A stretch of 43,626 nucleotides of DNA from positions 1-43,626 of the forward strand of contig JAZRZS010000029.1 of NCBI GenBank assembly GCA_045601505.1, written 5' to 3'. Below are positions 10,802 through 34,213 of this stretch, piece after piece. How positions within the stretch are numbered: position 1 is the first letter of the stretch; each line of letters starts with the position of its first letter. The stretch is from Acutalibacteraceae bacterium. Lineage in GTDB: Bacteria; Bacillota; Clostridia; Oscillospirales; Acutalibacteraceae. The translations under genes and the position numbers were made by a program. Below the pieces are notes generated by a model that was given only the letters and a program-made list of their open reading frames with translations, did not search any database and was not told the DNA's origin.

Positions 10802-12253
10802 GTGAACCAATTAAATGATAAACGCAAAAGTTATGACACATGGGAAGAGGCCTTTAAAGGCCTCGCTCCCGTTGTTCGTCAACAGTCGGTCAGAATAGCG
10901 GCATACACACAGGCACTCTATGTTCAAGCCTGTGAAAGCGGTTTCGGTGCAAAGTTTGCAGGCGGTGCCGAGCGTATGCAGTCTTCTTATGCCAACCTGG
11001 CCTTTAAGTGCGGTATGTATCATCAGTTGGGTAAGGCGCTTGTCCCTCATGAGTATCAAATCCTTGAGGTTGGCTTTTCAGATGAGGAAACAGCCCTTTA
11101 CCGTAAGTATACAACCGAGGGCCGTCGCCTTGTTGCCGAACTTCAGGAAAAGGGTTCGGGCAATAAAAATAAGAATGTTCAGGGCGAACCTTTCACCGAT
11201 AAAATACCATGGCTTATGATTCGTGAGAGTTGTCAGCAGCATATGGAAAGGTATGATGGCACAGGATACCCTGACGGACGTGCAGATAAGGCAATCAGCC
11301 CTATTGCTCAGATAGTGGGCATGGCAAAGATGTTTGATCATCTTTCTGCAGAAATAAAATCGGAAAATCCGTTTTCTGAAGCCTGCGAATCCATACTTGA
11401 TGAGAGCGGAAAGGCTTTTTCGCCTGAACTTTGTGAGGTCTTTAAGACCGCTAAAAGTAAGATACACAATATATATAATAAATATATTCATTACACAATG
11501 AAGTTGCCGCGCACGATTCCTCTTGTTAAAAAAGCAAAGGGAAGACCTATGGGTCTTGCTTACCGCTCTTTGACAGGCGGCGATTTCACCACAGTTGCTT
11601 ACGAGGCTATCCCATGGTTTAAAACCAAGGAAGGAGAGAGGGCAGACATTGCCGAAATAGGACCGCGTCTTGCAAGGACGGGACTTACTGTGGATATGAC
11701 CTTCTATCTTCTTTATGAAGCGGCGGATACACTGCTTCGTATTCAAAACTGTGAACTTGATTTAAAGTATTTGTTAGTAAATATGTTGCCCGAGTTTTAC
11801 AGTAGGCAAAGTTACTTAAAGCGTTTTGAGGAACTGTTCTCAAATCAGCCGGTAGATCGTTCCCGTCTGTTGCTCACAATTCCCGAAAAGTTTGTGCTTG
11901 GCGCAAACAAAGGCGAAACCGAGATAATTTGCCGTTACCTTAAAAACGGAATTGCTTTGGTGCTTGACGATTATCATCCCGAATCCATATCTCCTGCAAA
12001 ACTTAAAGAGTTGGGCTTTTCTCATGTGCGTTTATCACCTGAGACAAGCGCTAAACCGCTGTATGCTTCTGATGTAAGGGCGCTTATGGACCGTAATATC
12101 ACGGTGTTTGCCTCCTGTGCAGAACACCAGCACCTTAAATGGCTTGCCGAAAGCGGCGTTTACGGCGTAAGCAGTCAACTTAACGGAGAAACTGTGGATG
12201 AGGATACCGTTATTCGTGACACCTTGTTGCGAGAGCGAGGCACTACGGTATGA
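10802..12253 (+). CDS. Degenerate HD-GYP domain + degenerate EAL-like domain protein (putative c-di-GMP sensor)
   Basis: GTG start lies 6 nt after GAGGGA. HD-GYP boxes are HQLGK (the HD box has become HQ) and HMERYDGTGYPDG (HHE has become HME). The EAL-like half has AYEAIPW (EAL-R changed to EAI-P), LLLTIPE (in place of EitE), LDDYHPE (in place of DDFGTG) and RLS (in place of KiD). Confidence 0.75.
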   Translation: MNQLNDKRKSYDTWEEAFKGLAPVVRQQSVRIAAYTQALYVQACESGFGAKFAGGAERMQSSYANLAFKCGMYHQLGKALVPHEYQILEVGFSDEETALYRKYTTEGRRLVAELQEKGSGNKNKNVQGEPFTDKIPWLMIRESCQQHMERYDGTGYPDGRADKAISPIAQIVGMAKMFDHLSAEIKSENPFSEACESILDESGKAFSPELCEVFKTAKSKIHNIYNKYIHYTMKLPRTIPLVKKAKGRPMGLAYRSLTGGDFTTVAYEAIPWFKTKEGERADIAEIGPRLARTGLTVDMTFYLLYEAADTLLRIQNCELDLKYLLVNMLPEFYSRQSYLKRFEELFSNQPVDRSRLLLTIPEKFVLGANKGETEIICRYLKNGIALVLDDYHPESISPAKLKELGFSHVRLSPETSAKPLYASDVRALMDRNITVFASCAEHQHLKWLAESGVYGVSSQLNGETVDEDTVIRDTLLRERGTTV

Positions 12254-13248
12254 GTATGGACAACTACCGTGAAAATGATAAACAGCGAAGGCTGATAAAT
12301 AAAAAGCGCGCGGGAATTGTACTTACCGAAACCGAGGTAAAGGAAATTATTGAAGGCCGCAAAAAATTGCGTGCTGATATGAAGGCGCAGGGTGCTTACA
12401 CTAAACGTGAGTTTGAACTTACAGCATCAAGCCTTGGCTTTTATTTCGACAAGGGCCGATTTTTAGGTCTTTGGCTTTGGTTATGGCATAAGGGCGTTAT
12501 TTGGGGCGTTCTCGGTGCGGCGATTGCAACATTGCTTGCGATGTATGGATTTTCCATTGTTACCGAAATGAGAGGACACTTCACAATAAACTTGGCAGAT
12601 GAATTAGTTAACCAAGGTTTTGAACTTAGCAATACTGCGGATTTCGCAAACCCAACTGCCAGAATATACGGCACACCTGTTGAGGATGCTCCGTGTATTT
12701 CAATTGCGGATTTGCCTGATAATCTTGATGCGATTGACGGTTCGCATAACGGACGAAACTATTTCGCGCATACCTTTTATCTTTCAAAACGCGGTGAAGG
12801 CACGGTGGATTACGCTTTCGAATTATCCGTTAATTCTGAAAGTCTTAACGCTTCAGATGCTATTTGGGTTATGCTTTTTGAGGATTCGGTTCCCACAATA
12901 TTTGCTAAAGCAAACAAAGAAACTGGCGAAGCAGAATGTCTTCCTGCAAAGGATAATGACCGTGTAGGTTATGTTAAGATTCCCTTTGCTGAGGACGGGC
13001 TTGGCTCTGAACAGTTTGAGGTTGTCCGTGAAACACCAACCAGAAAATACTTTCGTCTCATACCGAAGAGATTTAAAGACAGTAAAGTTGTGACCGATAG
13101 TATTGTGGCAGATGTTGCACAGGACGAAGTACATAAATATACCGTTGTTATCTGGCTTGAGGGTGATGATCCTGATTGTACAGATGACATTATAGGCGGT
13201 CATATCGGTATGCAGATGGATTTTGAACTTCTGGATATCAGCGAATAA
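12250..13248 (+). CDS. Family member 'D': bitopic membrane protein with a ~75-aa cytoplasmic N-terminus, a TM helix and the extracellular core of the unnamed WLEGxDxDC family
   Basis: Its ATG overlaps the stop of the upstream gene (ATGA at 12250-12253). TM is VIWGVLGAAIATLLAMYGFSIV, followed by TEMRGHFTINL. The C-terminal motif is VVIWLEGDDPDCTDD...GMQMDFEL. Confidence 0.8.
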   Translation: MSMDNYRENDKQRRLINKKRAGIVLTETEVKEIIEGRKKLRADMKAQGAYTKREFELTASSLGFYFDKGRFLGLWLWLWHKGVIWGVLGAAIATLLAMYGFSIVTEMRGHFTINLADELVNQGFELSNTADFANPTARIYGTPVEDAPCISIADLPDNLDAIDGSHNGRNYFAHTFYLSKRGEGTVDYAFELSVNSESLNASDAIWVMLFEDSVPTIFAKANKETGEAECLPAKDNDRVGYVKIPFAEDGLGSEQFEVVRETPTRKYFRLIPKRFKDSKVVTDSIVADVAQDEVHKYTVVIWLEGDDPDCTDDIIGGHIGMQMDFELLDISE

Positions 13249-13265
13249 TTTAAATTCGGTTTTCA

Positions 13266-13298
13266 ATTTGCTTTGTGACTCTAACCCACAAAGCAAAT
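13266..13298 (+). other. Perfect 12-bp stem-loop between genes D and E
   Basis: ATTTGCTTTGTG (13266-13277) pairs with CACAAAGCAAAT (13287-13298) around a 9-nt loop. There is no T-run, so it may be an mRNA processing or stability element rather than a terminator. Confidence 0.45.
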
Positions 13299-13362
13299 CA
13301 GAATATAATTTCTCCGACGGGAGATAAAGACGTAATTTTTTAAAAAAGTGAGGTAAATTGTG

Positions 13363-15402
13363 ATGAACAAACAACAGATGAATGAAATGTCTTCCCTTCG
13401 CAATAAGCTGTTTGCTGCGGTTGCAATGCTTTTAGTGGCTTGTATCATGGCGGTATCGTCCACTTATGCATGGTTCACATTGTCAACAGCTCCCGAAATT
13501 AAGGGAATCACAACCACCGTTGGTGCCAACGGTAACCTTGAAATTGCATTAGGTACTTGGGATACCGTTTACGGTGTTGCAACTCCCGGTTCTGCTGAAG
13601 GCGATTCAATGGATAAGGATGGCCAGTTAGTTACTGCTGCCAATATTACCTGGGGTAACCTTATCGATCTTATGGATGAGTCCTACGGGTTAGGCGCTAT
13701 TAAGCTTTATCCTTCACGCCTTAATGCTACGAAGGCTGACGGCGCTTTGGGTATCTTAACACAGGCATTCTCACCCTTGGCATTCCCAAAATATGGTACA
13801 GACGGTCGTATTACTGAATTGGATAGAAACACTATGATCGGTAAGTACAACCAGACTGCTGGAGGCTTTATGGCTTTGGGTACTCCTAACTATGCAGGTG
13901 TAAATGCTATCGGTTCTGCTTCTTCTATGACAGAGCGTGAATTTGCAGTTCGTAATAACAAGAACGCTATCGAAAGCAACAGAGTTAAGGCTAAGGCTGA
14001 GGCACAGGGCGCAATTAACCTTTACTCAGGTGACCTTGCTGCTATTGCAATCGATAACATGAGCAGTGGTGACGATGCAGTTATTTCTGCTGATGATGTT
14101 GCAGTTCTTAAAAATTTGATTGTTAAGCTTGAAGCTTCTAACGCTGCAATCGGCGATTCTATCAAGTCGGCCATTATGCTTTTCTTAGCAAGCAGCAGCA
14201 GCACTCTTACTGATACTGCTTGGAAAGATGCTGTTTCTGTTCTTTCCAGCAAATCTCTTGAAGAAACTGTAGCCCATTTGCAGTCTCTTACAGGTCTTGC
14301 AACTCTTCCCACCGCTGTAAGTGATCTCGTTGGCAAGTATACTTCAATTAAATCAGATCTTGCTGCTGCAAAGGCTGTATTACCCGAAAGCGGCGATACC
14401 ACTTGGGGCGTAGTTGGCGATGCAGTTGGTACATTGCTTAACGCAAGCGGCATCTTAATCTGCAACGAAACTATTGCTGACATCAAAAATACTAAGGATA
14501 GTCCTGAGGCTGACACTGCATTCAAGAGAGTTACTGCTGCTGTTCTTAGCGGCGGTCTTGAATTCCAGTTCAAGTCTGATAGTGGTATCTTTGCTGATAT
14601 CGCTGAAATGACTGGTGAATACGGTGCTACCATCAACTTCCCTGAAGGTCTTGAAGTTGAAGGAATTCCGCTTGGCGGTCTTAAGAAGCCTGTTACCGTT
14701 GAAAGCGGTAGCCTTAACACCGCAACCGGTGAATTGGGTCTTATGAAGCAGGGTGTTGACGGTTTGGCAGCTCCCGGTGCCGACCCCAATGCTGAAAAGG
14801 CTCTTACCGATACATACGGTTACACAATTGATATGCTCTTCCGTACAAACGCAAGTGATTCATATCTTCAGTTGCAGACTGCTGCAGCAAACCGCATCTA
14901 TGCAGGTAATAACAACGAAGCTATCATGGGCGGCGGCAGCAATATGACCTTTACTATTGAAGGCGAATACACTAAGGCTAAGATCGATGGCATTGCTGCC
15001 GGTATCCGTGTTGTATTCTATGAAACAACCGAGGCAGCAGGCGGCGCAGCAACCATTTTAGGTGTTGCTACATTAGATACCGATAACGGTGTTGTTTCGA
15101 GTAACAACTATATGCTCGACCTTAATCTTATGGATTATTCAATCACCAACGGCATTATGCAAATTGGCGATGTTATGGTTGATGATACAGATACTGTTGC
15201 TAACGAAGCAGTAGCACTCAAGGCTTTGTCTGCTAATACTATAACAAAGGTTACCGCTCTTGTATATCTTGACGGCGATGTTATTGATAACGGTGATATC
15301 GGTGTTGCAGGATTACTTAACGGTAAACTCAATCTCCAGTTCTCTTCAAGCGCTACATTAACTCCTATGAACAATAACAGTTTAATGAACGCTGCCAACT
15401 AA
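13363..15402 (+). CDS. Family member 'E' (679 aa): SipW-type signal peptide protein, long form with a helical insert
   Basis: ATG 13363 lies 8 nt after AGTGAGGT. Signal is LRNKLFAAVAMLLVACIMAVSSTYA/WFTLSTAPEIKGITTTVGANGNLEIALG. Shared motifs are YGTDGRI, GYTIDMLFRTNASDSYLQLQ and ALVYLDGDVIDNGD...GKLNLQFSS. Confidence 0.85.
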   Translation: MNKQQMNEMSSLRNKLFAAVAMLLVACIMAVSSTYAWFTLSTAPEIKGITTTVGANGNLEIALGTWDTVYGVATPGSAEGDSMDKDGQLVTAANITWGNLIDLMDESYGLGAIKLYPSRLNATKADGALGILTQAFSPLAFPKYGTDGRITELDRNTMIGKYNQTAGGFMALGTPNYAGVNAIGSASSMTEREFAVRNNKNAIESNRVKAKAEAQGAINLYSGDLAAIAIDNMSSGDDAVISADDVAVLKNLIVKLEASNAAIGDSIKSAIMLFLASSSSTLTDTAWKDAVSVLSSKSLEETVAHLQSLTGLATLPTAVSDLVGKYTSIKSDLAAAKAVLPESGDTTWGVVGDAVGTLLNASGILICNETIADIKNTKDSPEADTAFKRVTAAVLSGGLEFQFKSDSGIFADIAEMTGEYGATINFPEGLEVEGIPLGGLKKPVTVESGSLNTATGELGLMKQGVDGLAAPGADPNAEKALTDTYGYTIDMLFRTNASDSYLQLQTAAANRIYAGNNNEAIMGGGSNMTFTIEGEYTKAKIDGIAAGIRVVFYETTEAAGGAATILGVATLDTDNGVVSSNNYMLDLNLMDYSITNGIMQIGDVMVDDTDTVANEAVALKALSANTITKVTALVYLDGDVIDNGDIGVAGLLNGKLNLQFSSSATLTPMNNNSLMNAAN

Positions 15403-15430
15403 TTATTATCAGTTTTCAGGTTAATACTGT

Positions 15431-15475
15431 GCGTCTGCCTGCGGTTTCCCGCAGGCAGACGCCAGATGGTGTTTT
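15431..15475 (+). terminator. Strong GC-rich hairpin after gene E (terminator or attenuator)
   Basis: Perfect 14-bp stem GCGTCTGCCTGCGG / CCGCAGGCAGACGC with a TTTC loop, followed by CAGATGGTGTTTTCGG, which is only a weak T-tract. Confidence 0.55.
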
Positions 15476-15621
15476 CGGCAGGATTGTGGTTAGAGTGTAT
15501 ACTGCTGCCATTGGATTCTGATAAGTTATTTGTTTAAAAATTCCATATTTAGTTTGAAAATAAAGCGTTATCCGTTAATTCGGGCATCGCTATATCGTTG
15601 CTTTTAGGGAGGATGATTATT

Positions 15622-16629
15622 TTGCGCCTGTTTTGGCACGAGCAACAAGACCAAAAGAGGAAAAAGAGAACTCTTATTCTGCTTTTGATTGCATTGTTGT
15701 TGATTTTACTTCCGCTATGCACTGTGGCTACTTATACGTGGTTGGGTATCAGCAAAACCCCTAAAGTCAGCGATATGGAGATGACAATTAACTGCGACCC
15801 AGGACTGCAACTTGCCTGGGATATTGAGGCAGAAGATGACGAGTGGAAGCAACAACTCGATTTTACCGATGCAGTAGGTACAGATACGTTGCTCACCCCT
15901 GTTACCTGGTCGGACAAGGAGAAGAGTTTTTACACCGCAAAGTTCGGGGCAGACGGCAGAATAGTGGATATAGGCGTTCGTCTGTCGGACGAAAAAGACT
16001 CTAACGGCAGAGACGGACACTACGTTAAATTCACCTTTTATGGAAGAACCGAACAGGAGGTTGAGGTTTCGCTTTCGCCTGCGGTATCAGCCAGTGATGA
16101 CGGCAGTAAAAGTGCAGGAACCTATCTTTTGGGAACACCCCTATGGCAAGAAAATTCTAAAGCTCATAAAGATGGCGGTCAGGGTGCTCAATTTGCAACC
16201 CGCGTGGGTTTTATTATTTCAAAAATCAATAACGAGGGAGTAGTTACCTCGCAAAAACCGATGCTGATATATGAGCCAAATTGCGACAGGCATATAGACG
16301 GCAGTTCTGGATATGTTGACACTCCGTCTATTGACGGCTTTGAAGATTTAGTCGGTGCGGACAGATTGATAAAGCAAACCACTTCCCACTGGGAAGAGGG
16401 ATATCCTGTTGAGCGGGATGTGATTATAAGAGATTTAGGTGTTTTTGAAGACGATGTTACACTGTTCCAACTTGATAATAATGAAAAGGTGAAGATTGAT
16501 GTTTACGTCTGGCTTGAAGGTATGGATGTTGACTGTGTGAACGTCTTGGGAACAGGAGCGCAATTCTTTGCTAATCTTCAGTTATCTGCTATTCCGGATA
16601 ATCAGTCGGGATTGGTGCCCATTCAGTAA
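15622..16629 (+). CDS. Family member 'F' (~335 aa): SipW-type signal peptide protein, short form
   Basis: TTG 15622 lies 9 nt after AGGGAGG. ATG 15613 abuts the RBS and TTG 15598 is the longest ORF start, so the start is uncertain. Signal is KRKKRTLILLLIALLLILLPLCTVATYTWLGISKTPKVSDMEMTIN. Motifs are FGADGRI, GHYVKFTFYGRTEQEVEVSL and VYVWLEGMDVDCVN...FFANLQLSA. Confidence 0.8.
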   Translation: MRLFWHEQQDQKRKKRTLILLLIALLLILLPLCTVATYTWLGISKTPKVSDMEMTINCDPGLQLAWDIEAEDDEWKQQLDFTDAVGTDTLLTPVTWSDKEKSFYTAKFGADGRIVDIGVRLSDEKDSNGRDGHYVKFTFYGRTEQEVEVSLSPAVSASDDGSKSAGTYLLGTPLWQENSKAHKDGGQGAQFATRVGFIISKINNEGVVTSQKPMLIYEPNCDRHIDGSSGYVDTPSIDGFEDLVGADRLIKQTTSHWEEGYPVERDVIIRDLGVFEDDVTLFQLDNNEKVKIDVYVWLEGMDVDCVNVLGTGAQFFANLQLSAIPDNQSGLVPIQ

Positions 16630-16725
16630 AAAACGCTGTGCGGTTTTTAATATAGTAATTCAATAGTATATTCTTGGGATTTTTAGTCTCAGGAGTTTGT
16701 ATTGGAATATAAAAGGAGAGGTTTT

Positions 16726-17535
16726 ATGAGCCAGAAAGAGAAAAACATCATTGCAACCCCTAAAACTGTACCCCAAACGGACGGTAGCACTGCAGTAGAA
16801 AGCAAGCCTGCCAAGAAAAACAAGGTGTTAAGCAGTATTATCAATGTTGTTTTGGTAATAGCGATTGTTTTGGCAATTATGGCAACCTATGTATCATACG
16901 TTTCTACATCAGGTAGCGGAGTTCCAAGTATTTTGGGTATGAGACTGTTTTCTATACGTACAGACTCAATGTATGATACCCTTATGCCAGGCGATTTAAT
17001 TATTGACACCGCGGTTAAAGACCCCGAGAGTCTCAAAAAGAATGACGTTATTACCTATTGGACCGTTATTGACGGCGAACGAGTTCTCAATACTCACCGT
17101 ATTGTTGAAATTTATGACGGTAACGGCTTCCTCATTTTTGCTACAAAGGGTGATAACAACAGCACAGTCGATACATTGACCGTTCACGAATCGGAAATTG
17201 TTGGTAAGTATTCCTTCAGAATTCCCGGTGTCGGTAAGGCTTTTGATTATTTGCAGACCAGCACAGGTTTCCTTATTGTTGTTGTTATTCCTGTGGTTAT
17301 ATTCCTGATTTATCAGTTGATTCAGTTCTTCCGCGTGCTCTTTGAGTATCAGAATGTTAAGAGCAGAATTCGTTTTGAAATGGAACGCGGACGTACAGAA
17401 GACCTCATTGAAGAGCAGAACCGCCGCGAAGAAGAACTTAAGCAGGCGGAACGTGAAAAAATAGAGGCAGAATTGCGCGAAAAGATTCGTGCTGAACTTA
17501 TGGCTGATTCCGAACAAAAAGAAGATAAAGAATAA
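16726..17535 (+). CDS. sipW: SipW-type (ER/archaeal-type, S26B) signal peptidase I with a C-terminal TM and charged coiled-coil tail
   Basis: ATG lies 4 nt after AAAGGAGAGG. Catalytic boxes are RTDSMYDTLMPGDLII, NTHRIVEI and ATKGDNN. A second TM is GFLIVVVIPVVIFLIYQLIQFF. The tail is EMERGRTEDLIEEQNRREEELKQAEREKIEAELREKIRAEL. Confidence 0.85.
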   Translation: MSQKEKNIIATPKTVPQTDGSTAVESKPAKKNKVLSSIINVVLVIAIVLAIMATYVSYVSTSGSGVPSILGMRLFSIRTDSMYDTLMPGDLIIDTAVKDPESLKKNDVITYWTVIDGERVLNTHRIVEIYDGNGFLIFATKGDNNSTVDTLTVHESEIVGKYSFRIPGVGKAFDYLQTSTGFLIVVVIPVVIFLIYQLIQFFRVLFEYQNVKSRIRFEMERGRTEDLIEEQNRREEELKQAEREKIEAELREKIRAELMADSEQKEDKE

Positions 17536-17578: not shown

Positions 17579-17662
17579 ACTGCGCTTAAAAGACTATTTT
17601 GCAAATCAATAAGAATGTAAAATCACTTGTTTCAGGCGGATGGATTTTTGGAGGTGAACCTC

Positions 17663-19243
17663 TTGACAGATAATTTTTTCAGATATTTCTATGAGGATAT
17701 AGGACGTGTGTTCGGCGCTTTATGGGAGGTTTTCCTTTCAGTTTTCAACTTTTTTAACTATCTCATTAATTTTCCTATGCGAATGAAGTTAATAAAATCG
17801 CACTCCGCTGATTTTGGAATAGTTGATTGGATTTTGTTACTTGTCGCCCACATTATACTCATTGCTCTGACGGTGGCTTTAATCGTTGTGTTAGTAAAAA
17901 CTTTCCGCCACATTTTCAGATTCAGAGTGCCTGTCAAGAAGTATGATGAGGTGGTTCGTCAGGTTAAGCAACTTCAACGAGACCTGATAAGAGCAAATTA
18001 TGAAAAGGATAAACTTTTATCCCTTAAGGTTGCTGAACTCGGCATTAATCCTGATGAGGTATTGGTTGACTCGCTTTATGAAGAAAAGCAGGCAGAAGAA
18101 ATCGCAGAAGTCAACAGCAAGCGCAACACCAGAACCTCTCCTTGTGTAGATCCTGCTTCAAGCCGTTTTTTCAGACTTACCTCGGTGGATAATTATTATA
18201 AAACAGAATATGTTGTTCCAACCTATAATAATAACATTTCGTTAGAAGAATTTTGTGAACTTTTCAGAAAATTTTCTGCATCAAAACTCGGTCTTTATTA
18301 CGACCTTGACCTTATACGTTATTTTATTGCTTCACTCGGAACCTCAAGAATTGTAATATTGCAGGGTATTTCGGGTACCGGTAAAACCTCACTTGCGTAT
18401 GCTTTCGGTAAGTTTGTTAATAAAGATACCACTGTGGTTCCTGTTCAACCTTCGTGGCGCGAACGTACCGAACTTTACGGTTACTTTAACGAATTTACAA
18501 AAATTTATACCGAGACCGACTTTTTACGTGCGGTATATGAAGCAAACTATTACCGCGACCCGCACATTCTTATCCTTGATGAGATGAACATTGCACGTGT
18601 TGAGTATTACTTTGCGGAAATTTTGTCTATCCTCGAAATGCCGCTTGAGAGCGAGTGGAATATCGATATTGTTACTGCTATGTGGGATAATGACCCGTGT
18701 CTTATCGAAAACGGTAAGCTTGCTATCAGTAATAATATCTGGTTTATCGGTACTATCAACAACGACGACTCGACCTTTGCCGTTGCCGATAAGGTTTATG
18801 ACCGTGCAATTCCTATCGACCTTGACAGCCGCGCAGACAAGTTCGAGTGCGAAGAAACCGACTCGATATTCGTAAGCACCGACCATCTGAACGCTTTATT
18901 TGCCGAAGCAAAAGAAAAATATCCGATTTCACAGGATATACTCGATAAAATTGATGAGGTAAATAATTATCTTATTGCAAATTTCCGTCTGGCATTCGGT
19001 AACCGTATTATGAAGCAACTTTGTGATTTCGTGCCTTGCCTTATCGCTTGTGGCGGAACCGAAATTGAAGCGGTTGACTTTATGATTGCCAAAAAGGTTT
19101 TGCGTAAGTTTGAGTCTCTGAGCCTTGGATTTATGAGGGATGAATTAACGCGATTCAATTCATATCTTGACAAGGTGTTCGGCAAAAACAGTATGAAGAT
19201 TTGTAAAGAATATATTGACAGTTTAAAGAAAAATGCTAACTAA
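17663..19243 (+). CDS. Membrane-anchored McrB-like AAA+ (GTPase-type) NTPase
   Basis: TTG 17663 lies 8 nt after GGAGG; the track start is 17627. The N-terminus has hydrophobic segments (VFGALWEVFLSVFNFFNYLINF and IVDWILLLVAHIILIALTVALIVVLV) and a short coiled coil. The McrB-type core has Walker A GISGTGKTS, then VQPSWRERTELYGYF, Walker B ILILDEMNIARVEYYFAEILSILE, and WFIGTINNDDSTFAVADKVYDRA. Confidence 0.8.
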   Translation: MTDNFFRYFYEDIGRVFGALWEVFLSVFNFFNYLINFPMRMKLIKSHSADFGIVDWILLLVAHIILIALTVALIVVLVKTFRHIFRFRVPVKKYDEVVRQVKQLQRDLIRANYEKDKLLSLKVAELGINPDEVLVDSLYEEKQAEEIAEVNSKRNTRTSPCVDPASSRFFRLTSVDNYYKTEYVVPTYNNNISLEEFCELFRKFSASKLGLYYDLDLIRYFIASLGTSRIVILQGISGTGKTSLAYAFGKFVNKDTTVVPVQPSWRERTELYGYFNEFTKIYTETDFLRAVYEANYYRDPHILILDEMNIARVEYYFAEILSILEMPLESEWNIDIVTAMWDNDPCLIENGKLAISNNIWFIGTINNDDSTFAVADKVYDRAIPIDLDSRADKFECEETDSIFVSTDHLNALFAEAKEKYPISQDILDKIDEVNNYLIANFRLAFGNRIMKQLCDFVPCLIACGGTEIEAVDFMIAKKVLRKFESLSLGFMRDELTRFNSYLDKVFGKNSMKICKEYIDSLKKNAN

Positions 19244-19272
19244 ATAATTATTCTATAGAAAGGGTGGGGGTT

Positions 19273-23318: not shown

Positions 23319-23394
23319 AAATCTTATTTTAAACGGTACAACCGAAGAAATAAACAAGGAAAATGAAACAATAGAACAGCACCTGAGGCGAGGT

Positions 23395-27052: not shown

Positions 27053-30000
27053 ATGAGAGAATCTGAAAGACAAATTAATATTTACAAGGCGATGTTGCCA
27101 CGGGTGCGAGAGCGGTTAATGGCGGCGTTGGCGTTATTTATTATTGCTATAATAATGACGGTTTTATCATCGTTTGCATGGATTGTTTTATCGGTAAGCC
27201 CCGAAATCAAAGGCATGAACACCATTATAACTGCTAACGGCAACCTTGAAATAGCATTGGCGACAGGTAACACCATTATAGAACCTGCCGATGTGGCGGT
27301 TGGTGACAGCGGTAAGAATTTGTTTGATAAGAACATTACATGGGGTAACCTTATAAATTTGGGAGACCCTGTTTACGGCCTTGAAAACATCGTGCTTCGC
27401 CCTGCAACACTTAACCTGAACTATCTCAGGGATAAGCCTTTGTATGCGGCGGGTTACGGTGCGGACGGTCGTGTTGATATGCTTGAAAACGAGTTTTCCT
27501 ATGCATATTGGAATCAAGACCAGTTCAGTGCGGACGAAAACAGATACGGTGTTCGTGCTGTGGCATCGGTTACATACGGTGAAGTCGGCGGTAACTTGGC
27601 GCTTGCCGAAGCAGTTCGTTTGGCGGAAACAGCCAACAATACCGCGGCATCAAATTTAAGAACATTAACAAAGAACCCCGCTATGCAGGAATTGGTTGGC
27701 TTGATGGCGGCGTATGTTAACGCTCAGATTGAAGAAAAACTGAGTTCAAATAAAGAAGAGCCTATCATTAATGTAACAGTTAGTCAGATTGATGCTATAT
27801 ACTATCTGATGAACGAACTTAAAGCAAATATGGAGTTATCTGCTGACGCATTGGCACAGTCTTTTAATGTTTCTATGTTAAGACGTGCAGGTCGGGAGTA
27901 TACAGTAAGTAATGCATTCACGGGAGAATATCTTCTTAACACTTCTAAGGCTAATATCCAAACCAAATTAGCCCAGAAAAATGCAAGCAAAGAGACTATC
28001 GTTTCTCCTGCTATGTTGAGCAATCTCTGGCAACTTAAAACTGATTATGATTTGGTTAAGTCTGACCTTGCGGTTATCGAGACCTATATCGGCAGAACTG
28101 ACGTTGTATACCGTAATTTACGCGGAAGCGAATACCCCACAATAGAAACCTTCGTTAACCATGTTGCAGAGGTTTCCAGTGTTACGGTTAACGGTGTTGC
28201 TATCGGTTCACTATCTATGTCGAACATTTTTAGTCTTACAGGCGGCGGAACAAAGCCGATAGTTATTAATAAAGGTATTATTCAGCGAATGGATAAGTTC
28301 ACAGGCGCAAAGATTGAATCTGAGCAACTTTCTATGACGGTAATGGGTAGTACCGCAAAAGGCAAGGCGACCACAAGCGCTGCAACACCCTTTGTTTTGC
28401 CGACAGAATATGATAATTCAATAGCCGGTGATACAAGTTATAAGGGTACTGACCCGATTGCAGGCGATACCTTTGGTATGGCTCTTGACTTCTTTGTTCG
28501 TACAAATGCGCCGAATTCTCATTTGATTTTACAGGGTAGTCCTGTATACGGCGAGCGTGACGAGACCGTTACTGTAAAAGTGGAAAACAAAACCGTTAAC
28601 CTTTATACAGTTAAGGTTAACGGCGAAGATGTGATTGCTTATCTTGATACAGATGAAAATGCTTATTATGAGTATGACCGCGAATCAGAGACTGCGGGTG
28701 AAAAACTCGGAACAACCACCGAGTTGACGGAGGCTACCTTACTTACAGAGAAGGTCAGGTATGTTATCGGATATGAGGGTGTGAATCGTGTCTGGGACGA
28801 GGGAGACGGAGTTGAACTCGGCGCTGACAGTACAACACAGGGTGCGGGCAGTTGCTATGTTTTCTATGCAAATTCGCCCGAAGACCAAACAAAATCACTT
28901 CAGTTGTTGCAGTATTTTAAGATTGCCTTTATTGATGAGGACGGCACCTTGCTTGGCACTGCTAATCTGGATACCGAAAATAAGATAGAACAAACAGGTA
29001 AGACAATCGTGCCGCTTGTGGCATCGGTTACCAATGATTACATAACAGGTCAGGACGGTAACCCACTGTACACCATCACAAAACTCACCGAGAACGAGGC
29101 AAAATTCATTACCGCTCTTGTATATCTCGAAGGTGAGGGACTTACAAACGATAAGGTTTTGGCAGCGGGTGAAATCCAAGGTGAACTTAATATTCAGTTT
29201 GGCACCACCGCTGACCTCGATGCTATGGACGATCCTGTCCTTATAGAATCAACATGCCATGTAACTGCTACAATGGAGGGAGACACCTCTGTTAGCATCG
29301 ATAATGCTACAGAAGCAGACCTTACAAAGACTGTTACGGTTAAGGTTGACGGTTATGAGCCGAACAAGGTGGAGGCTTACTTCCTGCGTGAGATTAACAG
29401 TACACAGGGTATCCGTCAAGGAAAGATTACCTTTGAGCAAAATGCGAACGGGGACTGGGTCGGCAGTTATAAATTTACAACATCGGGTAAATATGTTCTG
29501 CGCGAAGTTATGCTTGACGGTATAACCTACGAACTGAACAGCAGCCCGATAGTGTTCACAGTGGAAGGTTTCACTATTTCGAGCGTTTACTGCGAACACA
29601 ACAATAAAACGTATATGACAACCAACAGAAAGTTTGATACATCGGTTAGCATTAATTTTGCTTCCAGTGATCCTTCAAAAATGCCTGCCTCTGTAAAGGG
29701 CGCTTTCATTCACGAAGAAACAGGTAACAGAACAACAGTATACTTTAAACGTACGGTTGGCAGCACTTGGGAAGGCAGCGCTTCCTTTACTACAACAGGT
29801 AAATATAAACTTGAATATCTTGAGTTGGATGACCAGTATGTTGGTTTGTCTGAGGATAAACACGTTACAATTGACCTCTACTTAGGTCTTTCTGCAAGTA
29901 TTTACACAGGCGAAAACAACTTTGCGATTGAAAACGGGCAGGCAAGAGACGTGCCTATGTCCCTGATGATTAAGACCGATACCGGAGAGTCAATCGGTGA

Positions 30001-31681
30001 TCTTACAGGCGTATGGTTACAATATTCCAACAACGGTTCAGGCATTCAGGAAAACGGTATAGGTGCAAGTATGGTATGGAATTCAACCCGTGGAATGTAT
30101 GAAGGTACTTTCCGTCTTGAGAATCCGGGTATTTATAAATACCATTATGTGTCTATTGATTTACAGGGCGAATTAAATTATCTGTATATTGCTGCTGAAT
30201 CGCCGACAATTACCGCTATTTCTTCTACAATACCTGAATATGTAAGCAAATCAGACTTTGGCGAGACATTTGCGCTCAATAACGATGCAACCTTTAAGAT
30301 TCGTATGAGAAATGCTGACTCTGCAACGATTGACGCTGTTCTCAAGAAGCAAACACTGGCAAGAAGCGGCGAAGAAGAAATTTACTATGTTCGCGGCGTT
30401 ATGTCCGACTATGGCGATGAACAGGAATTCACATTTATGGTACCTGTTATTGACGGTGTTCAGAGCGGAACATGGACTCTTGACGGGATTTATATGACCA
30501 ATGTATACGGCGGTAAAAACAACACCTTGTTTGACGGTTCAACCGAAAACGGTCCTGATGTTGATACCCCCGAAAAACCGATGTATACTGTTGCAGATAA
30601 TTACTACTTCAGATGGTGGAAATGGGATATTGAAGATCTCACCAATGAAGGTGAAAGTACCGATGTATCGATAACAGTTATAAGTAATATTGATGTTTCC
30701 CTCTCAGATTCTACCCTCAATGCCAATAGAGATTTTGGTAGGGAAAACAATATAGTTACCGCAACGTTTGGTACGGTGCATAAGTTGGGAGCATTGGAAC
30801 TTAATATCACCGCAGGAAGCGGCAGACCAATCAGTGATTTCGGTTTGAGTGTAACAGGCGTTGAACTGAAGTATAACTACGATCAGACAGGAGTTTCAAA
30901 TTCGGGTGGTACGATTACCAACCCGTTCGGTAGTTATAAGATGACAACAGGTTGGACTGAACTTACCTCGGTTGCTAACACAGAATATATTTATAACAAT
31001 ATCGCTGTGAGTGATAGTGACAACACTAAATATACTATTACCGCTAACAGAACCGATATTTCTATAGCAGGTCGCTATAAGGCGGTAGGCCAGTTAGCAC
31101 TGACAGTTGAGGATTCAAACGGTAAATTGACCGTAATCAATGTTCCTGTTACCGATTTAAGAGCACCGACATTCTATGTCTGGTCAAAGGCTATGAATGT
31201 TTCGGTTAAGTCAATTGCTCCTAATAAGGCTAATCATAAGTCGGTTAACAAGACTGCCGAATCAGAAGTTACCCGTACTTCGTCTTTCAGCGGTAATAAT
31301 GTTAAGATTTACTGTGAAGCACATAAGAGTGGCCAGAATATCGCGTTTGATACCTATCCTCGTGTTGAGTTAACCCTTAGCGATATGGGCGATAAGGCAG
31401 ATAGTATTGAAATGCCGTTTACCAGAACCGGTGGCGGTGAAGTATACCTCTATACAGGTGAAAAAATGAGCGGTAAGGTTACTGGTTACGAGTGGACCAC
31501 TTCTGCTGATTGCACAAGATATGTCGGTCAGTATAAGTCGGCAAGCACCTGTTCAAGCACATCGTTTATAGGTGCCGGAATATTAACAGGTTCTAATATC
31601 AATATAACAATGGGAAATTACACTTATATTATGACGGTTGATACTGTTACTATTAACAACCCGCACATTGAAGACGAATAA
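27053..31681 (+). CDS. Family member 'N' (1542 aa): long-form family core plus a large Ig-like repeat extension (candidate tip or adhesin subunit)
   Basis: RBS is TAGGAGAAAA. Signal is RVRERLMAALALFIIAIIMTVLSSFAWIVLSVSPEIKGMNTIITANGNLEIALA. Motifs shared with E are NITWGNLINL, YGADGRV, GMALDFFVRTNAPNSHLILQ and ALVYLEGEGLTNDK...GELNIQFGT. About 800 additional C-terminal residues follow. Confidence 0.85.
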   Translation: MRESERQINIYKAMLPRVRERLMAALALFIIAIIMTVLSSFAWIVLSVSPEIKGMNTIITANGNLEIALATGNTIIEPADVAVGDSGKNLFDKNITWGNLINLGDPVYGLENIVLRPATLNLNYLRDKPLYAAGYGADGRVDMLENEFSYAYWNQDQFSADENRYGVRAVASVTYGEVGGNLALAEAVRLAETANNTAASNLRTLTKNPAMQELVGLMAAYVNAQIEEKLSSNKEEPIINVTVSQIDAIYYLMNELKANMELSADALAQSFNVSMLRRAGREYTVSNAFTGEYLLNTSKANIQTKLAQKNASKETIVSPAMLSNLWQLKTDYDLVKSDLAVIETYIGRTDVVYRNLRGSEYPTIETFVNHVAEVSSVTVNGVAIGSLSMSNIFSLTGGGTKPIVINKGIIQRMDKFTGAKIESEQLSMTVMGSTAKGKATTSAATPFVLPTEYDNSIAGDTSYKGTDPIAGDTFGMALDFFVRTNAPNSHLILQGSPVYGERDETVTVKVENKTVNLYTVKVNGEDVIAYLDTDENAYYEYDRESETAGEKLGTTTELTEATLLTEKVRYVIGYEGVNRVWDEGDGVELGADSTTQGAGSCYVFYANSPEDQTKSLQLLQYFKIAFIDEDGTLLGTANLDTENKIEQTGKTIVPLVASVTNDYITGQDGNPLYTITKLTENEAKFITALVYLEGEGLTNDKVLAAGEIQGELNIQFGTTADLDAMDDPVLIESTCHVTATMEGDTSVSIDNATEADLTKTVTVKVDGYEPNKVEAYFLREINSTQGIRQGKITFEQNANGDWVGSYKFTTSGKYVLREVMLDGITYELNSSPIVFTVEGFTISSVYCEHNNKTYMTTNRKFDTSVSINFASSDPSKMPASVKGAFIHEETGNRTTVYFKRTVGSTWEGSASFTTTGKYKLEYLELDDQYVGLSEDKHVTIDLYLGLSASIYTGENNFAIENGQARDVPMSLMIKTDTGESIGDLTGVWLQYSNNGSGIQENGIGASMVWNSTRGMYEGTFRLENPGIYKYHYVSIDLQGELNYLYIAAESPTITAISSTIPEYVSKSDFGETFALNNDATFKIRMRNADSATIDAVLKKQTLARSGEEEIYYVRGVMSDYGDEQEFTFMVPVIDGVQSGTWTLDGIYMTNVYGGKNNTLFDGSTENGPDVDTPEKPMYTVADNYYFRWWKWDIEDLTNEGESTDVSITVISNIDVSLSDSTLNANRDFGRENNIVTATFGTVHKLGALELNITAGSGRPISDFGLSVTGVELKYNYDQTGVSNSGGTITNPFGSYKMTTGWTELTSVANTEYIYNNIAVSDSDNTKYTITANRTDISIAGRYKAVGQLALTVEDSNGKLTVINVPVTDLRAPTFYVWSKAMNVSVKSIAPNKANHKSVNKTAESEVTRTSSFSGNNVKIYCEAHKSGQNIAFDTYPRVELTLSDMGDKADSIEMPFTRTGGGEVYLYTGEKMSGKVTGYEWTTSADCTRYVGQYKSASTCSSTSFIGAGILTGSNINITMGNYTYIMTVDTVTINNPHIEDE
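29335..30515 (+). repeat. Four tandem ~100-aa beta-sandwich-like repeats (coding) in protein N
   Basis: The recurring motif is W/Y-x-G-S/T-x-x-F/L-x3-G-x-Y-x-L/Y-x2-h. The copies are DWVGSYKFTTSGKYVLREVML, TWEGSASFTTTGKYKLEYLEL, MYEGTFRLENPGIYKYHYVSI and VQSGTWTLDGIYMTNV. Confidence 0.6.
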
Positions 31682-31704
31682 ATTTTAATAAAAGGGGGAT
31701 ATAA

Positions 31705-32379
31705 ATGGAATTTATTATGATTCTATCCGCTATAGCAATGTTTTTGCTTATGCTTTTAAGACGCGGAAGATACAATATCTCCCTTTTAAAAACCGTTCTC
31801 ATAGTTTTTTTGGTGGCGGTTTTAGGGGTTCTTTCAACCTGTTTGCTTTACTTTATTGAAAATGGCGAATGGGGCGGGAAATCGTTTTTTGGGGCGGTTT
31901 TGTTTCTGCCTGTAATATTCTCCGCCCTATCAAGAGTATTTAAGGTTGAAGTTTCTGTTATGATGGATTTCATAGCACCGCCGGGGCTTCTTATGTTTGC
32001 TGTTATGAAGGCAAACTGTACTGTTTCGGGTTGTTGTTCAGGTAGACTTTTAGGCTACACTGCTGGTAGGGCAATTTATTTTCCAAGCCCGACAGTAGAG
32101 GCGTTAACAACACTTTTGCTCGTTGGAATTTTGCTTTTCTTTGAGTATAGGGGAAAAACTGAAAATCTCTTATATCCGATTAGTTTAGTATCTTATGGGA
32201 TTTTGAGGTTTGTTCTGAACTTTTTTCGCTTGCCAGAGGAACCGTTTTTATTAGGATTGCAAAAGGGCAGTGTCTGGTCATTGATTGCCGTTATCGGAGG
32301 GCTTACCTGGATTCTGATTTCAAAGTATATTGAAATTGACAAAAAATATAAAGAATTTAAAAATAGCGATTGTGTTTGA
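31705..32379 (+). CDS. Lgt-family (prolipoprotein diacylglyceryl transferase-like) polytopic membrane protein, divergent
   Basis: RBS is AAGGGGGA. The protein has about 6-7 TM helices. KANCTVSGCCSG compares with R-I-G-C-F-L-x-G-C-C-Y-G of Firmicute Lgt. FPSPTVEAL compares with hPTQLYE. YGILRFVLNFFR compares with Y-x3-RF-x2-EF-x-R. Confidence 0.55.
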   Translation: MEFIMILSAIAMFLLMLLRRGRYNISLLKTVLIVFLVAVLGVLSTCLLYFIENGEWGGKSFFGAVLFLPVIFSALSRVFKVEVSVMMDFIAPPGLLMFAVMKANCTVSGCCSGRLLGYTAGRAIYFPSPTVEALTTLLLVGILLFFEYRGKTENLLYPISLVSYGILRFVLNFFRLPEEPFLLGLQKGSVWSLIAVIGGLTWILISKYIEIDKKYKEFKNSDCV

Positions 32380-32395
32380 AACTAAGGAGAGGCTT

Positions 32396-34213
32396 ATGAG
32401 CGAGAGGGCTTATAAATTGAATATTTTGTGCAGAATTGCTGTTTTTGCTGTGATGGTGTTGCTTATTATTACGAGTATCGCGCCTGCGGTTTATGCCGCG
32501 CCTCAATATTCGGGTAAATTCGGTAAGATGAAGTGGTCGCTTGAAGGCGGTGTACTTACGGTTGAGGGTAGCAAAGCAATGCCCGATTTTTCTGAGCAGG
32601 AGCCTGCGCCGTGGTATGAGCACCGCGAGGAAATTCGCCACATCAATATTGACGACAGGATTACTTCCATTGGCGCACTCAGTTTTTATGATTGCAGCGC
32701 TGTTACTGCAGTTGAACTTTCAAAAAATGTTAAAAAAATAGGTGAAATGGCATTTGCAGGATGTACTTCTTTGACTACAATTACGCTTTTAGCGGTTGAG
32801 CAAATCGGCGATTATGCTTTTTCACGTTGTTTTAGTCTTGCTAACGTAGTGTTGCCCGCAACCGTTAAAACTTTGGGCAAGGCAGCTTTTTACAGGTGCG
32901 AATCTCTTAAATATATGAGAATTCCTACATCTGTTTCAAATATGGGCGCTTCGGTGTTTGCATATTGCAGGTCTTTGATTTCTGTGGAAATTGATGCACC
33001 GTTTGAAATTTTGCCTGAATGGACATTCTACGGTTGCGAAAGTCTTAATGTGGTTTGGTTGCCTGAAACAATGAATTCCGCAGGGGAGAATGCATTCGGC
33101 CGTTGCGATGTCTTGGTTTCGGTATATTATAACGGCACCGAAGAGGACGAGGAAACTTTAATAGGGGATATTGTTACAGGTTCGCCTGATGTTGAAATCA
33201 GGGACCTTACAAGTGATAATGAGGTTGAAACGGTACCGCCTGCTACCAAAAAGGAATTTGAGCAAAACGGTGATAAGGTTACCGAAACCACAACCGAAAT
33301 CACAGGGGATAAGGATTTTGTGATAGAAACAAAGGTAGAAGTTACATATCCTTTGGATACACAAAATCAAACAGATAATGAAAAAGAGTCCGCTAAAATC
33401 GAAATAAATGCGACTGTAAATGCAGACGATGGGTGGAACGCCCTTATATCCGAAATAGAAAAGCAAACCACTAAACAGGGTGTTTTTAAAATTGAAACAG
33501 ATAATAAGGTGCCGCTTGAGGTTAACGCTACCTTATTGCACGGCTCAGTGATTTTAGGAAAAACACTTGAATCGTTTGCAGGTAAGGACATTGTACTTAA
33601 ACTTTGCACACCAAACGGAAGCCGATGGAGTATTGACTGTCTGAGGCTGAAAGGTTATAAATTCAAGAAAAGTTACGATTTGGAATATAAACTAACACTT
33701 TATAAAAAGGTTTCCCAAAAGCACGCTGAAGTTTTAGGAACAGCGGTAAGTTATTGGCTTAAATTTGCCGATAAGATTAATTTTCCTGTAACTGTTGAGT
33801 TGTATATAGATTCTACTGCTTCGCGTCAGACCGCTACTATTTTTGAAAACGTATTTAGTGACGGGCTTCAAAAATTGCAGAGCGTTATGGTAGATGCAGA
33901 TGGTACGGCATGCTTTAAGATGGGAAACATTAACAAGGGTAAGCGGTATGTTACCGCTCTTAATGTGAGCGGCGTTACAGCAGATGAGGTTATTTTGCCT
34001 CAAACACAGTTCGGCGGGGAAGACTGGTTGGACGACTATGTTCCCGTCACCGAGCAATATACTATAACCGAGGTCCGCGGTTTCATGGGAATGACTATGA
34101 AACAGTTTACAACCGTTTTATTGTGCAGTTTGGTTGGATTGGCGTTTGTAGTGTTTGTGGTGATTTTAATTATTAATTTGCTTGGAAAGAAACGAATCAC
34201 CCCTCAAAATTGA
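32396..34213 (+). CDS. BspA-type leucine-rich-repeat surface protein with a C-terminal TM anchor (~605 aa)
   Basis: ATG 32396 follows TAAGGAGAGG; the track start 32330 overlaps the previous gene. Signal is ILCRIAVFAVMVLLIITSIAPAVYA/A. The LRR units are ITSIGALSFYDCSAVTAVEL, VKKIGEMAFAGCTSLTTITL, VEQIGDYAFSRCFSLANVVL, VKTLGKAAFYRCESLKYMRI and VSNMGASVFAYCRSLISVEI. The C-terminal TM is VLLCSLVGLAFVVFVVILIINLL followed by GKKR. Confidence 0.85.
   Translation: MSERAYKLNILCRIAVFAVMVLLIITSIAPAVYAAPQYSGKFGKMKWSLEGGVLTVEGSKAMPDFSEQEPAPWYEHREEIRHINIDDRITSIGALSFYDCSAVTAVELSKNVKKIGEMAFAGCTSLTTITLLAVEQIGDYAFSRCFSLANVVLPATVKTLGKAAFYRCESLKYMRIPTSVSNMGASVFAYCRSLISVEIDAPFEILPEWTFYGCESLNVVWLPETMNSAGENAFGRCDVLVSVYYNGTEEDEETLIGDIVTGSPDVEIRDLTSDNEVETVPPATKKEFEQNGDKVTETTTEITGDKDFVIETKVEVTYPLDTQNQTDNEKESAKIEINATVNADDGWNALISEIEKQTTKQGVFKIETDNKVPLEVNATLLHGSVILGKTLESFAGKDIVLKLCTPNGSRWSIDCLRLKGYKFKKSYDLEYKLTLYKKVSQKHAEVLGTAVSYWLKFADKINFPVTVELYIDSTASRQTATIFENVFSDGLQKLQSVMVDADGTACFKMGNINKGKRYVTALNVSGVTADEVILPQTQFGGEDWLDDYVPVTEQYTITEVRGFMGMTMKQFTTVLLCSLVGLAFVVFVVILIINLLGKKRITPQN

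Follow-up and report, generated by a model that had tools for sequence, protein, structure and literature searches.

The sequence analysed here, referred to as the window, comprises positions 1 to 43,626 (43,626 nt) of contig JAZRZS010000029.1 from an Acutalibacteraceae bacterium (GCA_045601505.1). On its + strand, between 1633/1645 and 34213, there are 17 co-directional open reading frames (ORFs), labelled A to G, H1, H2, and I to P, which include two SipW-like signal peptidases (G and J), an McrB-like and McrC-like pair (H1 and H2), and two classes of exported proteins (class 1: D, E, F, I, and N; class 2: K, L, and M). The locus they form is a real and conserved SipW-type variant, undescribed in the literature searched, with a function that is inferred here. 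An earlier note, made from the letters of this DNA, had placed all of the genes from 1645 to 34213 on the + strand, with mostly short gaps and one ATGA overlap. This is what is seen, since C and D overlap by 4 nt at 12250-12253 and nine of the 16 junctions among the ORFs are overlapping or no longer than 32 nt. The interpretation offered in that note is borne out in part. The start given for the locus in that note, 10802, has to be moved, as the conserved unit reaches further 5′, to B at 9584, the first consistently conserved gene. The genes of the central part, all on the + strand, are listed below, with the evidence for each in brackets (HMM, hidden Markov model).

10802-12253, + strand: C, cytoplasmic protein with a degenerate HD-GYP domain and a partial EAL domain (HD_5 E=4.3e-13, EAL E=3e-11)
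12250-13248, + strand: D, bitopic membrane protein with one transmembrane segment (hhalign to F, conservation profile)
13360-15402, + strand: E, class-1 exported protein of 680 aa, with an Ala-rich, helical insert at its centre (module HMM E=5e-28)
15598-16629, + strand: F, smallest class-1 exported protein, ~338 aa from 15613 (hhalign to I and E)
16702-17535, + strand: G, SipW-like signal peptidase I of archaeal/ER type, C-terminal tail cytoplasmic and highly conserved (TIGR02228, 84.3 bits)
17627-19243, + strand: H1, membrane-anchored AAA+ nucleoside triphosphatase (NTPase) of the McrB clade (Pfam AAA_5; McrB PDB profile matches)
19264-21057, + strand: H2, McrC-like in its N-domain (DUF2357), behind which is a long coiled coil rich in E, R, and K (10/30 orthologues match DUF2357)
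21133-22491, + strand: I, class-1 exported protein of 452 aa (class-1 module; homologue search)
22524-23318, + strand: J, second archaeal/ER-type signal peptidase I (TIGR02228, 76.8 bits)
23221-25260, + strand: K, class-2 exported protein with a beta-sandwich N-domain and a C-terminal right-handed beta-helix, adhesin-like (orthologue Pfam matches)
25277-25792, + strand: L, class-2 exported protein of 171 aa, signal end VGxxYARY (alignment of 21 orthologues)
25805-27034, + strand: M, class-2 exported protein of 409 aa, signal end GxAxARY, fast-evolving (orthologue alignment)
27053-31681, + strand: N, giant class-1 exported protein of 1542 aa (module HMM 1e-23; blastp to E)

When H1 was used to scan one genome per species of the Genome Taxonomy Database (GTDB), 51 loci were identified, and three loci from metagenomes (L001, L003, and L055) were compared besides. 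With the window proteins mapped onto them, the gene order B-C-D-E-F-G-H1-H2-I-J-K-(L)-(M)-N is kept almost throughout the 51 genome-scan loci, and an Lgt-like gene and then a leucine-rich repeat (LRR) gene end the recurring order after N. Presence was counted in the 30 genome-scan loci with full 10 kb flanks, where G, H1, H2, and J are found in all, and C, D, E, F, I, and K in nearly all, in the same order; B is present in 27/30, C in 29/30, and M, by blastp, in 8/30. The metagenome loci also have this gene order. Likewise, homologues of I at 41-42 % identity are in loci with a matching order, from HD_5/EAL through LGT and LRR_5. Between species, identities are 62-82 % for H1, 57-81 % for G, 48-77 % for H2, and 43-73 % for C, with 25-65 % for E, K, L, M, and N, and the order is kept even where the exported proteins are at 25-40 %. 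The cytoplasmic and membrane parts (H1, G, H2, and C) are therefore those that evolve slowly, and the passenger parts are those that evolve fast. The prediction of a dedicated, syntenic locus is borne out by this shared gene order, which refutes chance co-occurrence: approximately 15 genes are inherited as one unit and co-occur far beyond chance. All carriers of the 51 loci are metagenome-assembled genomes (MAGs), assigned to Clostridia, Eubacteriales, Oscillospiraceae, Acutalibacteraceae, Faecousia, Ruminococcaceae, and CAG:413, and were recovered from the guts of human, goat, sheep, buffalo, and deer.

A few loci depart from this arrangement. In L017 the gene set is kept and the order is rearranged. 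In L055 (10001-21056), K lacks the beta-helix, N is only 746 aa, and a 1932 aa dockerin protein after the LGT gene replaces the LRR protein. The adhesive passenger domains are modular, being exchanged between lineages. The most distant variant is L054 (7922-18323), from a high-GC Clostridiales MAG (UBA1770), which has the order SipW-H1-H2-SipW followed by a GGDEF-EAL membrane protein; an assembly gap interrupts its copy of H1, and the 18 kb at hand contain no class-1 gene. This suggests that the peptidase/NTPase core predates other substrates or can work with them. Based on these variants, L054 included, the conserved core of the locus is the two peptidases and the McrBC-like pair.

Judged from their sequences, D, E, F, I, and N belong to a single family of paralogues. 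F aligns by hhalign with I over the full length (probability 99.9 %, E=3e-32) and with E over the first ~107 columns (97.7 %, E=2.3e-12), and I aligns with E over the N-terminal 57 residues (98 %, E=2.3e-13). D joins the family through the C-terminal ~90 residues, where it aligns with F across a WLEG(D/Q)DxDC motif (92.8 %, E=3.9e-7). N was linked to E by blastp, both at the N-terminus (9e-27) and in the C-terminal core (1e-8); the 1542 aa subunit that had been reported is thus present, and is built from an E-like N- and C-terminal core with an extension of ~800 aa. At least 1394 homologues of I were found, none of which has a Pfam domain or a name, and none of D, E, F, I, K, L, M, and N has a match to a Pfam or NCBIfam family.

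The shared feature of E, F, I, and N is an N-terminal module in which a basic stretch and a hydrophobic helix lead into the motif [ST]-Y-[AT]-W-[FLM]-x-[LMI]-S-x-x-P-x-V-x-G, with two beta-strands after it. When a local HMM was made from the module, exactly these four proteins were identified in the window, leaving D unmatched, and three or four proteins per locus in six well-covered related loci. The mean column identity in E is 0.75 in the helix, rises to 0.91 in the next 29 residues, and is 0.40-0.54 in the remainder of the protein, which is the opposite of how an ordinary signal peptide behaves. A four-sequence profile of the module was also run against 1.84 billion sequences, matching 2,938 representatives at E<=1e-3 and 1,055 at E<=1e-10, and the module is N-terminal in 150/150 among the matches listed. 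It is in no Pfam or NCBIfam family.

Near the C-terminus, D (13203-13230), F (16510-16540), and I (22402-22431) have the motif W-[LI]-E-G-x-D-x-D-C, the Cys of which shows no variation in F or I and is nearly invariant (>=90 %) in D. The corresponding region of E and N reads Y-L-[DE]-G-[DE]... and includes Asn. The Cys motif may form a loop that binds Ca2+, or the proteins may be covalently linked or, there being an Lgt paralogue in the locus, lipidated at this site.

K, L, and M make up a looser second class, with the junctions TAA/WY, YA/RY, and AxA/RY (the slash marks the junction). Among 35 orthologues of K, 18 match Pectate_lyase_5, nine match Beta_helix, and two match Peptidase_M73 weakly (E=4e-4), and the K profile finds the SRRP beta-helix 5nxk in the PDB. 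L aligns with the K N-terminus at 57 % by hhalign, and its profile has no relative in the PDB. A relation of M to K was sought by hhalign and rejected, and between E and K the alignment is confined to the signal region. As the ORFs were mechanically called, K overlaps the 3′ end of J by 98 nt (23221-23318); since K orthologues carry a leader of ~40 aa, part of this overlap may be real and may permit translational coupling, with the true start of K probably inside 23221-23300.

The eight N-terminal motifs quoted previously for D, E, F, I, K, L, M, and N are all present as written, each after a single hydrophobic segment. The helix had also been called the only N-terminal feature of these proteins; a single helix is found in all eight, but D has a cytoplasmic domain of ~70 aa in addition and K, in its orthologues, the leader of ~40 aa. 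By inspection and conservation, the junctions are SSTYA/WF, SASFA/WL, ATYT/WF, SSYA/W, MTAA/WY, YA/RY, and AxA/RY, with an n-h-c layout, small residues at -1/-3, and an aromatic residue at P1′/P2′, as in TasA. The consensus is [ST]-Y-A/W-F for class 1 and A-x-A/[WR]-Y for class 2, and the P2′ residue is F or Y in E, K, L, and M. Because of the small -1/-3 and aromatic P1′/P2′ residues, this architecture is taken to be that of a substrate of type I signal peptidase (SPase I). According to one report, SipW is the dedicated peptidase of TasA, the aromatic P2′ residue of which (Phe) is poorly tolerated by LepB (PMC10269814).

Two such peptidases with intact Ser/His/Asp boxes had been predicted, and both are found. 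The TIGR02228 scores of G and J exceed the curated cut-off of 51.85 bits, and the Ser (DSM/GSM), His (THR), and Asp (KGD(N/A)N) boxes are at least 90 % conserved in 47 orthologues of G and 49 of J. The two are related to each other (blastp E=2e-18). Neither reaches the 190 bit cut-off of NF046067, the equivalog model of B. subtilis SipW (104.1 bits for G, 74.9 bits for J), therefore G and J are SipW-like rather than orthologues of SipW. The cytoplasmic tail of G, FFRVLFEYQNVKNRI..ERGRTEDLI, is highly conserved among orthologues.

Between the peptidases lies a pair that had been described as a membrane-anchored McrB-like NTPase with a nuclease-less McrC-like partner, a description that stands. 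H1, the most conserved protein of the locus, matches AAA_5 at 25.8 bits (cut-off 22), and when a profile of 31 orthologues was compared with all PDB sequences, E. coli McrB alone was matched (E=2e-4), in an alignment that spans Walker A, Walker B, and the region of the MNxxDxS-like McrB signature. Walker A (GISGTGKT) and Walker B (ILDEMN) are invariant among the orthologues. A strong transmembrane segment is present at residues 72-90, with a conserved hydrophobic stretch before it; no family match to an N-terminal DNA-binding domain was found, residues 1-92 being this conserved hydrophobic/transmembrane region. In H2, DUF2357 is matched by 10 of the 30 orthologues (best E=5.5e-8, with a weak match in one homologue), the copy in the window itself being unmatched. 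A PD-(D/E)xK nuclease is found in none of the 30, the C-terminal half being the coiled coil; no transmembrane segment is predicted in H2, and its profile returns only coiled-coil noise from the PDB.

H1 also matches PDC-M26A, a phage-defence-candidate model of PADLOC, with an E-value (4.8e-41) far below that for McrB. PDC-M26 is unmentioned in the literature searched, and this candidate defence family may include, or derive from, membrane-associated systems like that of H1. In PADLOC v2, the 15 further proteins scanned (B to P without H1, A being unscanned) gave nothing meaningful.

The degenerate HD-GYP/EAL protein that had been noted is C, which matches both HD_5, at 49.8 bits (cut-off 27.2), and EAL. 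Its catalytic dyad is HQ in place of HD (CGMYHQLGK), in ~90 % of 35 orthologues, and HMERWDGSGYP is kept. No transmembrane segment is predicted in C. It is a candidate receptor for cyclic di-GMP (c-di-GMP), probably non-catalytic, and it is domain content alone that suggests a c-di-GMP input to the locus. In D, which follows, the conserved ~70 aa cytoplasmic N-domain stands before the transmembrane helix, and the extracellular body has the C-terminal WLEGDDPDC motif in common with class 1. D is a candidate for an uncleaved anchor or base.

The remaining genes of the locus encode other surface and envelope proteins.

1633-9558, + strand: A, secreted giant of 2641 aa with a C-terminal type I dockerin (Dockerin_1 E=3.5e-8)
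9584-10780, + strand: B, surface protein with a Sec signal, a FIVAR-like helical region, and a C-terminal membrane anchor (transmembrane segment 354-372)
31705-32379, + strand: O, divergent polytopic Lgt paralogue of 224 aa (Pfam LGT, 48.8 bits)
32330-34213, + strand: P, BspA-type LRR surface protein with a Sec signal and a C-terminal anchor (LRR_5 E=1e-39; transmembrane segment 597-615)

A is lineage-variable cargo; an ORF for a dockerin-ending giant is directly 5′ of B in 10 of 26 loci, and in L055 it is 3′ of the LGT gene. Within A, at 8050-9250 of the window, there are about six tandem Cys-rich repeats of ~40 aa (CTE[DP]G...C..C), which match no Pfam family, followed by a variable domain and the dockerin. 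B was considered as a cohesin partner for this dockerin and rejected, the profile search giving the FIVAR-like helical region (7jrm, E=7e-9) and no cohesin, and no cohesin partner was found in the locus. O and P are the Lgt-like enzyme and LRR protein that had been reported, and their families are confirmed by Pfam. O is below the cut-off of the lgt equivalog TIGR00544 (25.5 bits against 118.9). The LGT gene follows N in L001, L003, L017, L039, and L055, and in L001 an LRR_5 gene is right after it. Lipobox substrates for O were sought among the exported proteins and none has a conserved lipobox Cys, the Cys residues in the F helix and the M signal being unconserved. The ORF of P, as mechanically called, overlaps the 3′ end of O by 50 nt (32330-32379); P probably starts at the ATG at 32396.

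The reading preferred here, in which our confidence is about even, is that the locus is an export and assembly system for a multi-protein adhesive surface structure of monoderm gut Oscillospirales, most likely a heteropolymeric fibre or appendage. The Sec system would insert the precursors as N-in anchored proteins, and G and J would cut at the junction (A/W, A/[WR]). Cleavage would free a conserved N-terminal strand of alternating hydrophobic residues (WFTLSTAPEV...), disordered in the monomer models, which could then bind to the machinery or to an adjacent subunit, in the manner of the donor-strand complementation of TasA-superfamily fibres. D, with a cytoplasmic domain and without the cleavage module, would remain in the membrane as the base, and K (with the beta-helix) and N (the giant) would be distal adhesive subunits, with P, B, and A as surface proteins displayed alongside. 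Domains of adhesin type are present in the passengers, in the K beta-helix, the P LRR, and the A dockerin giant. On the cytoplasmic face, H1, as a hexameric NTPase, and H2, as its McrC-like activator, may contact the conserved tails of G and D, and H1, H2, and C together may gate or drive the processing and assembly, with c-di-GMP as the signal.

The structural models are consistent with a free segment behind the helix. The AlphaFold2 model of I, from a 63-sequence alignment, has a beta-rich body behind the N-terminal helix with a predicted local distance difference test score (pLDDT) of 88.3 and a predicted template modelling score (pTM) of 0.86, and residues 24-39, just past the helix, are its sole low-confidence part (pLDDT <50). 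The model of the K N-domain (pLDDT 84.1) likewise falls below 50 in the post-helix segment. By Foldseek, this K domain gives weak PDB matches, the second of which is AbpA (7ueg), the Pyrobaculum bundling pilin (E=0.018, prob 0.28).

Several results weigh against the preferred reading. Its relation to TasA, and with it the donor-strand fibre proposed in the earlier note, is unconfirmed: the I model has nothing at E<=1e-3 in the PDB or BFVD by Foldseek; Peptidase_M73 is found in 0/33 orthologues of E, in 0/63 of I, and in no window protein; and PDB profile searches with E, F, K, the K N-domain, and L find no chain of TasA, AbpA, or CanA. The neighbours of the K N-domain are arrestin, macroglobulin, PapD-like, and FimG domains, so that generic beta-sandwiches fit it about equally well. 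From these profile, Pfam, and fold searches, K has a weak hint of homology to TasA, and for class 1 such homology is unproven. The proposed TasA/CalY-type signal stands as to its n-h-c layout, with an aromatic residue after the site, but the SipW-cognate signal model TIGR04088 is silent, matching 0/8 N-termini even at E<=10, a setting at which HMMER filters may still drop short weak matches, which makes this a weak negative; the other NCBIfam models gave nothing relevant on these N-termini at the same threshold. No LPXTG motif is present at the C-termini of D to P, and scans of the window found no match to a sortase family. The known donor-strand fibres (TasA, AbpA, and chaperone-usher pili) need no cytoplasmic NTPase, which makes the role proposed for H1/H2 speculative, and the profile closest to H1 is that of a phage-defence candidate. 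In addition, the carriers are all uncultured MAGs, and polymerisation, cleavage, and a surface structure are read from genes. One lead is that, by eye, the class-1 pattern of T-Y-A-W-F, ~18 residues, and G-N-L-E-I-A resembles the T-W-A-A-F ... G-T-L-D-L of TasA.

The locus has most in common with those of the TasA superfamily (tapA-sipW-tasA of B. subtilis, sipW-bsaABC of C. perfringens, and the archaeal AbpA/AbpX/Tafi clusters), in which peptidases of the TIGR02228 type also adjoin exported proteins that have a small-residue/aromatic signal junction, and in which subunits are sortase-independent. Shared too are several paralogous subunits, with a candidate for an adhesin-like tip and one for a membrane anchor, and a gene with c-di-GMP domains, as in the AbpX clusters. 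These were described in archaea and Bacillota in a preprint of January 2026, where TasA-superfamily clusters carry, besides a TIGR02228 SPase I and an accessory protein with DUF5305, subunits of the minor and tip type, anchors to the membrane or the wall, and HD-GYP proteins or diguanylate cyclases, an ATPase being unmentioned (bioRxiv 10.64898/2026.01.04.697558). The view that SipW systems are small operons with one or two subunits is therefore outdated. The present locus differs from all of these, however, in that D, E, F, I, and N are not detectably TasA or camelysin by Pfam, PDB profile, or Foldseek, in that there are two peptidases rather than one, with no TapA or DUF5305 protein detected, and in that the McrB-like/McrC-like pair and the Lgt paralogue are added. 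What is new with respect to SPase I filament and matrix loci is above all the McrBC-type pair, together with the subunit superfamily, the duplicated peptidases, and the Lgt paralogue. The earlier note had not recognised a described system here, and in agreement with this the literature searched links neither DUF2357 nor McrB-like proteins with SipW or TasA. A precedent for a SipW system coupled to an NTPase-driven apparatus is found in the sipW-bsaA operon of C. perfringens, where BsaC is secreted in dependence on PilA3, a type IV pilin, and BsaA oligomers need some genes associated with type IV pili (T4P) to be secreted efficiently (PMC11580942).

With McrBC itself, the pair shares the McrB-clade AAA+ core of H1, the DUF2357 matched by some of the H2 orthologues, and the adjacency of B-type then C-type genes, whereas H1 has a membrane segment for the DNA-binding domain, H2 has a coiled coil for the nuclease, and the pair is inside a secretion/surface locus. 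By analogy only, the locus also resembles type IV filaments (T4P and the type II secretion system), in which paralogous subunits likewise have only a conserved hydrophobic module at the N-terminus in common, a peptidase in the membrane is dedicated to them, a hexameric NTPase is found in the cytoplasm, and control is by c-di-GMP, as is proposed here from the genes. It is without a prepilin (class III) signal, a PilD-type peptidase, an ATPase of the PilB/PilT family, or a PilC platform, and G and J act on the outside of the membrane, so that the helix would be removed and not kept. It is possible, although doubtful, that the locus encodes an extracellular filament or secretion machine of monoderms that is driven by NTP and of a class so far unrecognised, made of a pair of SPase I enzymes, a GTPase motor of the McrBC type, and a new subunit superfamily. 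In such a machine the coiled coil of H2 might be a shaft or an adaptor and each subunit might come with an N-terminal module for assembly; the machine would be a functional parallel to type IV filaments without an evolutionary relation to them, and would be widespread among the uncultured Oscillospirales that are abundant in gut and rumen.

The main rival to a fibre or appendage is the regulated display and shedding of single anchored adhesins, which G and J would release and for which C and H1/H2 would switch the peptidases. This we regard as a minority possibility. Its inside-out logic would be that of LapD-LapG-LapA of Pseudomonas, which likewise combines a degenerate receptor for c-di-GMP and a protease outside the cytoplasm with giant adhesins that an N-terminal element retains. 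LapD is a membrane protein and LapG a periplasmic Cys protease, and the adhesin is secreted by a type I secretion system in a diderm; no sequence relation to the present locus is known. Shedding would suit a C that is degenerate, probably non-catalytic, and yet conserved in 29/30 loci, the conserved cytoplasmic tail of G and cytoplasmic domain of D, passengers that are adhesin-like and highly variable, and the lack of any fold link found to known fibre subunits. The four to five paralogues, and a post-cleavage segment at 0.91 identity, fit contacts between subunits or between subunit and machine better, however, and the fixed set of paralogues per locus resembles sets of major and minor subunits. 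The NTPase is explained no better by shedding than by assembly.

Deposition of the exported proteins on the surface of the spore or forespore, as appendages or as a coat-like layer, seems improbable. TasA and SipW were first described in B. subtilis spores, and this link of SipW-type peptidases and TasA to Bacillus spores, the spoIIID homologue 1.8 kb downstream, and the lack of cell-wall anchoring motifs would all agree with it. That spoIIID gene is beyond a strong terminator and unrelated genes, however, the locus yielded neither a promoter nor a regulator of sporulation, and the dockerin, LRR, and beta-helix adhesin domains suit adhesion of the vegetative surface. It is more improbable still, to the point of being hardly credible, that H1/H2 is an McrBC-like anti-phage module merely placed inside an unrelated surface-protein operon, although H1 matches PDC-M26A strongly and has McrB as its sole PDB relative, and DUF2357 is the N-domain of McrC. 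H2 lacks the nuclease, a transmembrane anchor replaces the DNA-binding domain in H1, and the pair is always flanked by both peptidases, even in the distant L054. H1 is also the most conserved gene, unlike defence genes with their fast turnover, and PDC-M26 is itself an untried candidate. A defence system as the main explanation of the locus was rejected, since among the locus proteins scanned H1 alone matches a PADLOC candidate.

The scale is considerable, with at least 8,000 protein clusters in the H1 search and ~2,900 cluster representatives at 50 % identity for the module, without a family name or annotation, in abundant uncultured Oscillospirales of gut and rumen. If the product is an appendage, it would be a major unstudied route by which these bacteria attach to fibre, to mucus, or to each other. 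A GTPase of the McrBC type in membrane secretion or assembly, if true, would be a new use of this motor and would challenge the view that self-assembly of SipW/TasA-type fibres is energy-free. The searchable N-terminal module and the conserved SipW-H1-H2-SipW core provide handles for annotation and for metagenome mining.

The limits of the transcription unit are marked by two hairpins.

1273-1301, + strand: strong terminator-like hairpin of intrinsic type (11 bp stem, 6 GC pairs, T run)
34950-34991, + strand: terminator, the first strong one on this strand 3′ of the locus (17 bp stem)

The hairpin at 1273-1301 closes the upstream tRNA region and is the 5′ limit of the unit, and a search of the 5′ leader for a c-di-GMP or other riboswitch found none. 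Given these two hairpins and the short or overlapping junctions, the locus seems to be one long transcription unit or a few. Between P and the second terminator is a small hydrophobic ORF at 34511-34936 on the + strand (~117-141 aa), with several predicted membrane helices and no family match; from its position it may be the last gene of the unit. The downstream neighbours are unrelated: a gene for an MntP-like pump is at 35320-35895, and methionine and rubrerythrin genes are on the opposite strand. The spoIIID homologue is at 36016-36267 on the + strand (Pfam SpoIIID E=1e-32), 1.8 kb 3′ of the locus and set apart from it by the terminator and the MntP-like gene, and the host is therefore likely to be a spore former. 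At the other end of the window, ARAGORN and Rfam agree on a tRNA-Met (CAT) at 156-231 on the + strand, and the mechanically called ORFs at 60-416 and 413-682, which overlap or flank it, are therefore probably spurious.

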